From positions 98,022,001 to 98,086,000 of the forward strand of contig NC_043000.1 in the NCBI RefSeq assembly GCF_006345805.1: 64,000 bases of DNA. The letters are read 5' to 3'. Origin of the DNA: Octopus sinensis. Its lineage: Eukaryota. A program made the translations under genes and the position numbers. Of this stretch, positions 16,490 through 58,455 are shown piece after piece. Every line of letters begins with the position of its first letter. The stretch's first letter is position 1. Below the pieces are notes generated by a model. That model saw nothing but the letters and a program-made list of their open reading frames with translations, was not told where the DNA came from and did not search any database.

Positions 16490-16558
16490 GTTGTTATGCT
16501 TTGTAAGCATTGGTGCTGTCGTTACTTTTCTGTTGGATTACCTGGGTGAAAAGAAAAG
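16490..16558 (+). CDS. Internal coding exon A of a NEF1-like polytopic membrane protein gene (LLCFVSIGAVVTFLLDYLGEKK-R)
   Basis: Polypyrimidine tract and ttgcag acceptor; AG|gtaagt donor; 69 nt, phase 2 to phase 2; joins exon B in frame (AG+A=Arg). Confidence 0.85.
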
Positions 16559-19500
16559 GTAAGTTTTTTCTCCTCCTCCTCCTCTCTCTCTCTCTCTCTC
16601 TCTCTCTCTCTCTCTCAAGAGTTGTGTATATATATATATATATATAGCTACAGATTCAAGTATTTATGTTTGTGTATACATACACTCACACCATATTTTT
16701 AGACCCTGGCCACTACATAGTTGATTTTGGCCATGTAGACACTACCAGTGGAACAGTGAATCTCTTCCACTTTTGTTCAATGGAAAATAACAGGACATTT
16801 GTCAGGAGATAAAATGAGTTGGCCAGAGTTAAATTTGTTAGCAATGGTCACTGCACAGTGACAGTGCATTAATCTCAGAAGAGAGAGCATCACTTTTTCA
16901 GTACCAGATTATTTCAGTTATCTGCATTTATATGTGTGTGTGTGTGTGTGTGTGTGTGTGTGTGTGTGCACTCTGTAAAATGGTTGGCATTAGAAAGCCA
17001 TAGAAACTATGCTGAAGCATGATGCTATCCTTGGACCCTCAGATCCTGGCAAACTGTTCAACCCATGCCAACATGAAAGATGGACATTAAAATATCATAT
17101 GTGTATATATATATATATATATATATATACATATATATATATACTTTGCATGTACCACGTCCTTGTGCTGTTGTTTTTTCTTGTGTATTTTTTTTACCAT
17201 TGTGGGGGGATTATGTATATATATATATATATATATATATATATATATATATATATGACATGGCTGTATATTTAAGAAGTTCATTTCACAACCACATAGT
17301 TTTGAATTCAGTCCTACTGCATGGCATCTTGGGCAAGTGTTTCTACTATAGCCCTAGATGAACCAATATCTTTGGGTGAATTTAGTTGATAGCAACTCTA
17401 CAAAACTCTGTATGTGTATGTGTACGTACATACATACAAGAATGTTTATAATCTATAAATGCATGAAAAAGCACTGAACTGTAGCTGGTGTTATCTGTTG
17501 TCATTTCCTTGTCAACAAATCATCTGATATTTCTGCCCTTTTGTTGACAAATGGAATGAAAATTGCCCTTCTTAAAATGCAAATAAGGGTTAGTAGAAGA
17601 AAGCATCCAGCTGTAAAATAATGCTTCTACAGCATGTATTTATTTAATCTATGCTAGCTTGTAAAAATGGACATACAAAAAGAATGAATGGTGATGGTGT
17701 GTGTTGTGTTTCATTATCATCATTCATCCACTTTCCATACTGGCATTGTTTGGACAGGTCATCATTGTCTGAATCAGTCCTTATTCAGACCATGTCCTAT
17801 CTATTATATAGATGGGTCAATAAAATAAATTTTGAGTAAAGTATTAGGGTCAGTGGTATGTTCTACTCCTCCCCCATCAAAATTGCTGGCCTTGTGCCTA
17901 TCTCCGTGTTCCACTCAGATGGTTGCCATCCAGCTTAGTTTTGCAAGCTGGATGGTGATCTCACCAGTACTGGTGACATGAAAAAAGCACCCTGTATGCT
18001 TTGTAAAGTAGTTGGCATTCAGAAGGGTATCCAGCTATAGAAAACAACCCGATACAGTCACTGAAACACAATGCAGTCCTCGGAGCATTCGACCCTTGCC
18101 TGCATGAAACAAGGATATTAAAAGATTATCTTCATCATAATAATCAATCAAGTAAGAAAGAAAACATCTGCCGTAATAGTTTTATGAGCTTCTTATTTAT
18201 CTACTTATGCATACATACATACATCAAGTCACATTTTTAAATTGCTTCCATTTGTGCTTAATGCATCTGTTTTCATGCACATCAGTACATTAGTATTCAT
18301 AGAGATATGTCATGTTAGTGCATTGAAATACATTTATCATCTACCACTATGTTTGTATATTAATGCACAAGCTCATGAGGTATGTATTTTGTCTCTAGGT
18401 AGGCAAGCAACACTTCAGCAATATTTATAGTTTCCAGTTTAATGTTTTGAGGTGGAACATTAATAACAAGTGACCAGATGTGCCTTGCTTCAGAGCCAGC
18501 TGTGGCATAAAAATATCATCGTCCCCATGCTGCTGCTATTTGATGTTTAGCCCCAAGTCAGTTCAGATCAAGTAGACCTATTATCAAATGCATTTCAACC
18601 AAGAACATCCTGTCTTTCCAGACATAGTTTATCTCAGACTATATTGTATAATGTTATCATCTTATTTGTTTATTTATTTATTTATTGTTAAAGGCAGTTG
18701 TGTGCGGTTTGAAAGGGGTTTAGTTGCTATTTTCAGCAGGGCGTTAAATCACCAACAGAAACATTCTGACTCACAAGCATAGTCTCTCCTCTCTATCTTT
18801 CCTGTCACTACTAAAATGGCTTCTGTTCTTTGTAGCTGGTCAGTCTTTTATGTACTCCAATCAGGCACTGCCAAACACCCACTTCTCCACTTTGTTGCTT
18901 CTACCCACTCCCACCTCTGTAACCTTGCATGAACCACAATGCCCAGACTTTCCTTCTCTGGAATCATCTTCCTGCTTATATCTTCCCTGCAAATGCTGGC
19001 TTGCAACAGTTTAAATGGAATATTATTGGGTATTAAACTCACTGATCTTGAAGGATCCGCAAAAGTAATGTGTGCTGTCTCTTCCTCCAGCCCCTACAGG
19101 TAAAAAAGAGAGAAAGTTTATATTTTACTCCCACTTTTGCTATTTGTTAGCGCAGTGGCAGAATAGAAAAAAAAAACTACCAGTATACATACATATATAC
19201 TAAATGATGTATGGACAGGAAGTCTATTATTCAGTCAACTATACTCTTTACTAGCAAATTTATAGCATTCTGGTATGTGTGTGTGTGTGTGTGTGTGTAT
19301 AATAAGGATGTATTATAATACTATTCCACAGCCATACCAACAATCCAACATACCTCCATCATCAGCTGCCCCACAGATATCATTATGGTTTCGACACCTG
19401 AGCAGTACCATTCAATCTGGTGTTGTCAACAGCACTAAAATAAGTGTTGTTTGGGAACAAACAAACCAAAGAAACTACAACTTTCAAACACATTTACCCT

Positions 19501-20119
19501 ATGCACAACCGTATCGATAAATAAATTCCATAAATAATTTACGACCACTCCAAAATACGTAACTAAACAGCCACAACTCTATTAAGTCATACATTGTTTT
19601 GATATTAATGGTAATCTGCAATAACTAAACTATATGCTAAATTGTGATCCATCTTTAAGTCCATATAAATAATAATCCCACCAGTCTTCCATAAAATTTT
19701 ATCCAAAACAAAACGCGATTGAAATTAATTTAACTGATATTTTTATGAAATTCATTATTTCATCATTCAAAAGTTAATAATAAAACACTACTTACTCATT
19801 AATATATCGCTACTACACATTATAATATTAATTTACCAGTGAGTAATATACACTTAAATTTCATTAAATAGGAACTAATAAAAGTACTTGTAATAAACTA
19901 ATATTATAAACATTGCTGTTTAAAGCTAATTAAACTGTTTAAAAGACAATAAAACTACAATTATTAAAACAAAATATATGAATACTAAAAATGTACATGG
20001 ACATATAAATATATAAACATAATAATATTGGAATATAGATAAAAAAGTTTTTTACTTAAATTAAAATATGGTATAGAGAAAATAATAGGCATTAATAAGT
20101 TTTGGGTTACATGTTAGAT

Positions 20120-20210
20120 GAAACTATCGTTTCTGGGGTTCATTTGTCCAAATAACAAATGAATCTTAAGGATTCATTTTCAGAGAATGTCCTCTTCATC
20201 AGGTAAAAAT
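20120..20210 (-). ncRNA. Hammerhead-ribozyme-like motif
   Basis: Minus strand reads CTGATGA-AGAG(gacatt)CTCT-GAAA with an 8-bp stem III AATGAATC/GATTCATT. Stem I is only about 2 bp and the cleavage triplet is UUU. Confidence 0.45.
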
Positions 20211-56518: not shown

Positions 56519-56984
56519 AGTAGATTAAATGATAAATCTAAGACTACATACAAATACCATCACTGGCTTTTGGCTTGTAAGAAATACCAAGCAGACATTT
56601 TTTCAAATCCCTTACCATTATTTATAGCACATCTAAACTCAAAGTTTAATCCTTTCCTTCAAAGACTTATTCACTGATTAATCCAAATTCTGGCTCTTCT
56701 ACATTTGTTACAGTTTATAGCTTCTCCACTGATAGCTATCTGTATTATCTAAATAGACAAAACAGATTGGTAGATTGATAGACTGATTACTAGATAACTA
56801 GACAAGATTGCTGGATAAATTGACAGATTGATAAGATAGACAGGAGTTATCTAAGAAGTGCATTTAGCAGCACAATGTTCCTAGTTCAATTCCACTGGGC
56901 AGGACCATGTGCAAGAGTCTTCTATCATAGCCTCAAGTTAACCAATGTTTGAGTGAAATTTGATTGATGAAAATGATTGAATCC

Positions 56985-57185
56985 TGTCGGTGGCACGTCT
57001 CTGCTGGTGGCACGTAAAGAGCACCCACTACACTCAGAGTGGTTGCATTAGGAAGGCATCCAGCTGTAGAAACACTGCCAGATCAGACTGGAGCCTGGTG
57101 CAGCCTCCTGACTTCCCAGACCCCAGTTGAACTGTCCAACCCATGCTAGCATGGAAAATGGACGTTAAATGATGATGATGATGAT
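56985..57185 (+). mobile_element. RTE 3' UTR fragment fused behind a family A SINE head
   Basis: ggtggcacgtaaagagcacc..ccatgctagcatggaaaatggacgttaaatgatgatgat. Confidence 0.8.
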
Positions 57186-58339
57186 ATGTGAGTGTGTGAA
57201 TGCAAGTATATTTCTTTTATTATTGTATTGATTTGGAGAAAAGGCTTCTACCACAAACCGCACAACCCTCCATGATCATTGAGATCAATATGGTTAAAGT
57301 TTCTCCTCTTGTATATTTGAATATGCATGTTTGTGTGGCAATACTGGTACCGTATGTATATTGTATATTGGTGTAAATCAAATGGATTGAACAAAAATCA
57401 CTTATGGTGTTTAGACTCTGAGAAAGTAAACTGTCATTCAATAGAGATCGATAGAAAATAATGGTAGTAGACTATGTACTTGGGTTAGGGTACATGACTA
57501 GGAGTCTGGATGTTGGTTCCTCAGCATAGCTGCAGTTCAGAGCCTGAAACCATTAAAACAATATAATTTAGAAGTAATATTTTTAATGGTTTAGGGCAGG
57601 AGGAAGGGTTAATTCCCATGACCCTCTTAGGTCCTCAAACGCCGGAAAGATATTGGTTTCAAATTTTGGCACAAGGCCATCAATTTTGGGGGAGGGGTAA
57701 CTCAATTGCATTATCCCTAGTGCTCAACTGGTACTTGTATTATCGACCCTGAACAGATGAATTTGAATCAGAATGTAAAGCTGGATAAAATACCATTAAG
57801 CAATTAGCCTGGCGTGCCAATAATTCTGCCAGCTCACAGTCCCAGACACTGAAAAGACACTAATATCATGAATGTTCAACTTAAATTATCTGTAATTATG
57901 CAGGAGCGTGTGGTCAGTAGAAAGAGAATTCCAGAGAGGTGGTGCTCTGGAAAGAAAGGGTTGGAAAAATAGTTAGTGTGGGGTACTGGGACAGGTGGAA
58001 GGAGGCAGTCAAAAGGACAAGAAGAGGAAGAGAGGTTGGTTGTCCCAGCCTGAGGTGGTATGAAATTAGCTAGTTAAGAGGAGTGGAGGCTGTTATATTT
58101 GTGGTTGATAATAGAACATGCAGAAAGGAAGAAGAGGTGGTACATTTATGGGCCAGAGATTGTAACATGTTAGTGAGTTAGTAGTTTCCAACCTGTCAGC
58201 TGGCCTACTTTTGGATGTGATCTCTGATGCCTGTGTATGTTTGTAAAATTAGCAGAGAAATTAGTAATTTATCAAGTGATTTAATGCTGTTGGATGTTAT
58301 GATATTCTTTTTCATTGAAACCAATGTCTTTTATTTCAG

Positions 58340-58455
58340 ACTATTGAAAAGCTGCTATTTACTGCATTCCCTGCTCTGTCTGTGGCATTATGGATATGGG
58401 CAACAATGTCTGTTGTAAAACTAAGCCTGCTGCCTTATCTTACAATAGCCTTTGG
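58340..58455 (+). CDS. Internal coding exon D of the NEF1-like gene (TIEKLLFTAFPALSVALWIWATMSVVKLSLLPYLTIAF-G)
   Basis: tttcag acceptor; GG|gtaagt donor; 116 nt, phase 0 to phase 2. IEKLLF...WIWATMSVV resembles NEF1 LERLLF...FAWATISAV (recalled). Confidence 0.9.

Follow-up and report, generated by a model that had tools for sequence, protein, structure and literature searches.

The closest described relatives of the gene considered here come from pollen biology. NEF1 (No Exine Formation 1) entered the literature as a 'novel plant protein', and reviews describe it as a plastid membrane protein (PMC3220415, PMC12346373). According to reviews, the plant nef1 mutant is defective in primexine and sporopollenin deposition (PMC3220415), shows abnormal membrane undulation (PMC7063588) and altered tapetal lipids (PMC12346373, PMC3220415, PMC7063588), and contains fewer sterol esters, the protein being labelled a 'plastid membrane transporter' (PMC12346373). 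A further review assigns the plant mutants dex1, nef1 and npu a common phenotype, with no membrane undulations and thin callose (PMC9292386). A Chlorella paper lists homologues of both NEF1 and DEX1 (PMC4928020), and an oyster gene is named Dex1 in one table of another article (PMC13280272). Here, we describe an animal member of the NEF1 family, four of whose exons lie in a stretch of 64,000 nucleotides of the Octopus sinensis genome (G000:C4:98022001-98086000, hereafter the window). No paper placing NEF1 in animals was found in the searchable literature, where papers on 'no exine formation' were plant-only by title; subscription papers and InterPro/PANTHER pages were beyond reach, and animal members may have been recognized before.

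The gene encodes a protein of 932 residues (P0001), held by NCBI and UniRef as uncharacterized LOC115211136 [Octopus sinensis]. An earlier sequence-only reading of the window had called the gene 'hidden', which it is not, because NCBI already lists it. The same reading had proposed four exons joined in matching frame across GT-AG introns of 16011, 14112 and 11465 nucleotides, and its coordinates proved exact:

16490-16558, + strand: coding exon 2 of 19, 69 nucleotides, residues ~62-84 of P0001
16559-32569, + strand: first window intron, 16011 nucleotides, GT..AG, phase 2
32570-32644, + strand: coding exon 3, 75 nucleotides, residues ~85-109
32645-46756, + strand: second window intron, 14112 nucleotides, GT..AG, phase 2
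46757-46874, + strand: coding exon 4, 118 nucleotides, residues ~110-148, with the conserved W131-x-x-L-Q-F136 block
46875-58339, + strand: third window intron, 11465 nucleotides, GT..AG, phase 0
58340-58455, + strand: coding exon 5, 116 nucleotides, residues 149-187, including E151

All four donors read GTAAGT, and every acceptor is a pyrimidine-rich tract ending in CAG. A strict splice-site scan returned 14 rows on the + strand and 12 on the - strand; three of the four exons are among the former and the fourth is unlisted. Once spliced, the exons form a single open frame with no stop (the other two frames hold 4 and 9), whose 125 whole codons correspond to residues 62-186 of P0001, residue 187 arising from a split codon. 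The window thus encodes 126 of the 932 residues. Mapping of P0001 on the window and its neighbours gave 19 coding exons from C4:97984434 to 98140766, of which the window holds exons 2-5; the gene spans 156 kb with 18 introns on a 165-Mb scaffold. All 19 genome-search matches of P0001 fall here in a strict first-look search, consistent with a single locus. The protein search with exon 46757-46874 yielded four candidates, and the three proteins kept were P0001 and its O. bimaculoides and Argonauta counterparts. In the O. bimaculoides model (P0002), residues ~188-233 are wholly unlike P0001 and P0003 over the exon that follows the window and probably represent a mis-modelled exon. The locus is a real, annotated, unnamed gene of ordinary structure.

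Transcript data bear directly on the third window intron (46875-58339). It is skipped exactly in all three RNA-like runs (X2, X4 and X8, from three studies), within single contigs of 1,504-3,522 letters, and its flanks are covered unspliced in the large DNA-like run X15; the RNA status of the runs is a computed guess, and no run containing the last exon is recorded as RNA. Two RNA-like contigs reach further upstream than exon 46757, by 289 and 703 letters, and diverge from the genome at its acceptor, as expected of a transcript with earlier exons. Both P0001 and P0004 contain the residues at the junctions of the first two window introns; P0004 is a relative with 68% identity, from a Logan contig whose 3,173 nucleotides cannot accommodate such introns. 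Outside the window, ~32 kb beyond its end, intron 9 (L004:1593-2637; G000:C4:98117593-98118637) carries the U12-type donor GTATCCTTT and a U12-like branch site ~10 nucleotides before its end, a class assigned by comparison with the U12 consensus. Its termini are apparently GT..AT, if P0001 is correct, and the remaining 17 introns are GT..AG. P0004 reads the same as P0001 across this junction, and the Argonauta model has two extra residues.

The homology to NEF1 that had been proposed from the window alone was borne out by phmmer, HHalign and shuffle controls. A phmmer search with the octopus protein against 1.84 billion representatives gave 139 matches; among the 30 that were looked up there was no Arabidopsis sequence, and 24 carried an organism name: 15 animals, 7 streptophytes, one amoebozoan and Diphylleia. 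The named animals are molluscs, a brachiopod, annelids, a nemertean, echinoderms and cnidarians, and no vertebrate, arthropod, nematode, fungal or prokaryotic protein is among the 24, which is a hint of loss and not a test of it. The 115 nameless matches are nearest to a named animal in 85 cases and to a named non-animal in 30. Two matches, from Vanilla (E 2.1e-11) and Chara (E 5.4e-9), are titled 'No exine formation 1', a name borne by none of the 15 named animal matches. Word-indexed protein searches returned only four cephalopod-like proteins. The Mactra relative, P0005, is named a pleckstrin-domain protein at its source, and no such Pfam domain was found in it.

The likeness extends over the whole length of the protein. 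In BLAST, P0001 aligns collinearly with Vanilla NEF1 over residues 31-248 (E 2e-14) and 761-910 (E 3e-5), and the four blocks cited in the sequence-only reading align as well. An HHalign comparison of 23 sequences from the animal side with 7 from streptophytes reached a probability of 100 and an E value of 1.8e-46 over 866 columns (profile positions 36-926 against 53-1086; 18% identity). With the plant profile, 15 of 16 animal proteins score 20-92 bits (octopus 91.5) and reversed or locally shuffled controls at most 5.9. The peptide encoded in the window reaches 32.5 bits by itself, and none of its 2,000 shuffles exceeds 5.9. With the animal profile, all 13 other proteins score 79-243 bits and the best shuffle 4.0, the 13 including the unnamed P0069 that the tree later placed with animals. 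An alignment of 32 proteins shows a shared set of NEF1-family residues (F-x-Y-N-x-R, W-x-x-L-Q-F, E-x-x-L-F, P-x-x-S-S-F, E415, K464, P592 and N766). In the ESM Atlas the NEF1 cluster ranked first at 0.87, which is below the Atlas mark of 0.9 and serves as a lead only. Judged by these alignments, the octopus protein is a full-length orthologue of plant NEF1.

A quick tree of 39 rows and a careful tree of 16 named rows (LG+G4) were built, with fragments and most unnamed matches excluded. The animal sequences form one clade (100/100), ordered as cnidarians, echinoderms, lophotrochozoans and molluscs. Topologies uniting the animals with Vanilla, or with Vanilla, Chara and Closterium, were rejected in the approximately unbiased test (p-AU 1.9e-15 and 3.6e-4, respectively), and the grouping of animals with all streptophytes against the two protists received support of 65/34. 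P0069, a full-length unnamed protein of 1,068 residues on a long branch, joins the base of the animal clade, where an early-branching animal or a unicellular relative might fall. These sequences are most simply read as inherited vertically from an early eukaryote and lost in some lineages later, and the NEF1 family probably matches the main eukaryote groups in age. The earlier suggestion of an uncharacterised animal member of an ancient eukaryotic family is thereby upheld by its presence in animals, streptophytes, an amoebozoan and Diphylleia, and by the tree. Its companion argument, that large introns speak for long residence, holds in part: the tree and the U12-type intron, which fits long residence in the host lineage, support the residence itself, but in a genome rich in repeats the size of an intron carries little weight.

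Two other accounts of the plant likeness have to be weighed against this history. Transfer of a plant or algal gene into animals, or contamination, would agree with the patchy presence, in which none of the 24 named matches is vertebrate, arthropod, nematode or fungal, and with the position of animals plus all streptophytes relative to the protists, which is neither shown nor rejected. Nevertheless, a single animal clade branching in species order, the rejection of land-plant-donor topologies, which largely refutes a land-plant source, and 18 introns, one of them of U12 type, spread over 156 kb of a 165-Mb scaffold make such an origin hardly credible. That the likeness merely reflects hydrophobic composition is next to negligible: the low identity across the profile alignment and the Atlas score would be in keeping with it, but the reversed and shuffled controls fall far below the 91.5 bits of the octopus protein, and specific motifs recur on both sides, in order and from end to end. 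We regard the exons, the splicing of one intron, the whole-length homology and the inheritance along the animal tree as practically certain.

The predicted architecture is that of a large polytopic membrane protein. The AlphaFold model of the octopus protein (predicted local distance difference test, pLDDT, 80.5; predicted template modelling score, pTM, 0.67) is helical throughout, apart from an acidic, disordered N-terminal tail and a short C-terminal one, and contains no soluble domain; a model of the N-terminal fragment of a relative reached a pLDDT of 91.9. Hydropathy over 17 residues is at least 1.5 in 24 of the 31 model helices. Lysine and arginine counts alternate from loop to loop over 30 helices, the limits of which were set by the analyst from the model, and this alternation places both termini in the cytosol. 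The prediction is of ~30 membrane helices joined by loops that are short on the outer side, with both ends cytosolic and without any soluble domain for catalysis. The sequence-only reading had counted about five hydrophobic segments, which agrees with five model helices in the window stretch but represents only a small part of the whole.

Conservation was followed in the same alignment of 32 proteins (20 animal-side and 12 other). E151 is the sole residue besides the start that is invariant in all 32; K464, P159, S201, F202 and P592 are kept in 31, and E415 and N766 in 30. Within the first eight helices, the conserved polar residues mostly lie at the predicted cytosolic face (Y39, N40, R42, D77, W131, Q135, E151 and S200-S201-F202), while the conserved acid E415 and base K464 are found near the outer ends of two middle helices in the model, and the conserved tryptophans W109, W359, W604 and W839 on the predicted outer face. 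No histidine is conserved above 18 of 32 and no acidic pair is conserved in this alignment. Neither an N-terminal dileucine (2 of 32 proteins) nor a C-terminal endoplasmic reticulum-retrieval motif (0 of 32) is conserved.

Comparisons with solved structures gave no clear match. The PDB returned nothing at E 1 by sequence or by profile, and Foldseek against the PDB nothing at E 0.001 with either model. In VIA-align the best Z values of separate searches were 7.2, 9.4 (a soluble prenyltransferase-fold protein, 127 residues) and 8.5, all below the level expected for helical bundles; this lack of a fold match does not show that the predicted fold is new. In both wide fold searches, the membrane domain of adenylyl cyclase AC5 (8sl3) ranked first or second for the N-terminal part (Z 9.2, root-mean-square deviation (rmsd) 5.2, 189 aligned; Z 8.5, rmsd 5.6, 168 aligned), tied with unrelated rows. 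With a Z below the ~13 expected for helical bundles, 8-9% identity and no cyclase domain in the octopus protein, the likeness is at most a common helix arrangement. Rows for GT-C and MBOAT proteins are weak and partial (DPY19, Z 7.4, rmsd 4.2, 137 aligned; HHAT, Z 6.7, rmsd 7.2, 63 aligned); the defining traits of these groups are a large outer loop and a catalytic histidine, respectively. Kinship with the DUF2339 bacterial membrane proteins (PF10101) found no support: none of 58 family members matches at E 0.01, and the Atlas value of 0.78 is at chance level. Repeated helix bundles, as in Piezo-like or other repeat-built membrane proteins, were not found either, the best segment pair reaching a probability of 4.7%, although repeats too old for sequence profiles would escape this comparison.

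The Octopus sinensis genome also contains a gene for DEX1 (PF23722 at E 1.7e-23; L027:2851-4875, - strand; G000:C3:129933850-129935874). It is a single open frame of 674 codons, apparently without coding introns in an intron-rich genome, and encodes a hydrophobic N-terminus, FG-GAP repeats, a sandwich and a C-terminal membrane helix. None of 46 candidate stretches in metagenome contigs was a DEX1 relative. A complex prediction for octopus NEF1 (36-922) with the DEX1 sandwich and membrane helix scored 0.00, which, run without an alignment and with the propeller omitted, is evidence neither way.

By analogy with the plant mutant, octopus NEF1 may be a translocator of lipids or lipid-linked precursors in the secretory or plasma membrane that supplies surface coats within a DEX1 pathway, a reading to which we assign a probability of roughly 0.4. 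The conserved cytosolic-face residues of the first eight helices, together with E415 and K464, would form a binding site and gate; a transporter or scramblase-like protein of this kind would deliver material for an extracellular coat to the cell surface, and the plant mutants suggest that single-pass DEX1 acts in that pathway too. On this view, an older machine would have been put to use for pollen walls only late. Several observations weigh against this proposal. Lipid handling by the family is drawn from the plant mutant, and since a plastid location cannot hold for animals, the lipid changes of the plant mutant may be an indirect effect. The searchable literature contains no measurement of transport, lipid binding or location for an animal protein of the family. 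No internal repeat was found, though many transporters have one (the best of 76 segment pairs being the one mentioned above), and no Pfam family was recovered with single exons, full proteins or the 58 family members, the sole rows being a weak THH1/TOM1 match in one of the 58 and PH_32 at E 0.11. The co-occurrence with DEX1 is that of one genome and an oyster gene name, not a phylogenetic profile. As to the homology, the Capitella protein is the one animal sequence of 16 that fails the plant-profile test, and the plant set was retrieved with the octopus protein as query, which biases it toward N-terminal likeness.

The same mutants could instead point to a membrane scaffold or cargo adaptor that transports nothing itself and acts together with DEX1 to shape the plasma membrane or bring wall and matrix enzymes to it. 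The shared loss of undulations and thin callose in dex1, nef1 and npu (PMC9292386), the presence in the octopus genome of DEX1, a single-pass FG-GAP propeller protein, and the outer-face tryptophans lend this some appeal; yet the strongest conservation lies at the predicted cytosolic face and inside the membrane, where a pure scaffold would not need it, and 30 helices seem large for an adaptor, so that we consider it somewhat doubtful. The charged residues E151, E415 and K464, conserved inside membrane helices or at their ends, would also suit a channel or transporter for ions or small solutes that has nothing to do with lipids, the plant lipid changes then being secondary, but the absence of a pore-like repeat and the few polar residues conserved along whole helices render this improbable. 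Distinctly improbable is a membrane-embedded enzyme of the acyl- or glycosyltransferase type: invariant E151 with its conserved neighbours and the weak DPY19 and HHAT rows may be cited for it, but no histidine is sufficiently conserved, a conserved acidic pair is lacking, and the outer loops are short, unlike those of GT-C enzymes. The lipid-translocator proposal can be carried further, to NEF1 and DEX1 as membrane core and outer subunit of a lipid-export machine, ancestral among eukaryotes and built on a new 30-helix fold. Plants would use it for pollen walls, and molluscs, corals and echinoderms for surface coats; the usual model animals and fungi would have lost it. We think this extension unlikely as it stands; if true, that loss would explain why the machine has been overlooked.

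Intron 1 of the gene harbours, at window positions 3750-6890 (- strand), a copy of a long interspersed nuclear element, probably of the RTE type, whose endonuclease and reverse transcriptase lie in different frames and which carries a C1-like zinc motif. A 3' fragment of the same family, without a Pfam match, lies at 41609-42391 (- strand) within the 14-kb intron.

Full-length orthologues in octopus, corals, starfish and amoebae imply that the core job of NEF1 needs neither plastids nor sporopollenin. A plastid-only or pollen-only role cannot be ancestral for the family, and the reading of the male-sterile plant nef1 mutant changes accordingly. NEF1 is a large membrane-protein family without a Pfam entry, a clear solved fold or a known activity; the animal proteins add new members to this known family, which still awaits a mechanism and a solved fold. 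The question is testable in tractable invertebrates (sea urchin and Nematostella-type cnidarians, if the gene is present) and by cross-kingdom rescue.

Among animals, the nearest comparison is with the uncharacterized LOC proteins of invertebrates (Haliotis, Patella, Biomphalaria, Lingula, Owenia, Acanthaster, Lytechinus, Xenia and others), which are one-to-one relatives of 840-990 residues and 24-35% identity. With plant NEF1 (Arabidopsis At5g13390 and the Vanilla and Chara proteins), the octopus protein shares collinear homology, conserved blocks and many membrane helices. It differs in size, its 932 residues comparing with about 1,050-1,300 in plants, which carry inserts, and in the C-terminus, as plants and protists have a common basic tail that animal proteins lack. 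Above all, its host has no plastid, pollen or sporopollenin.

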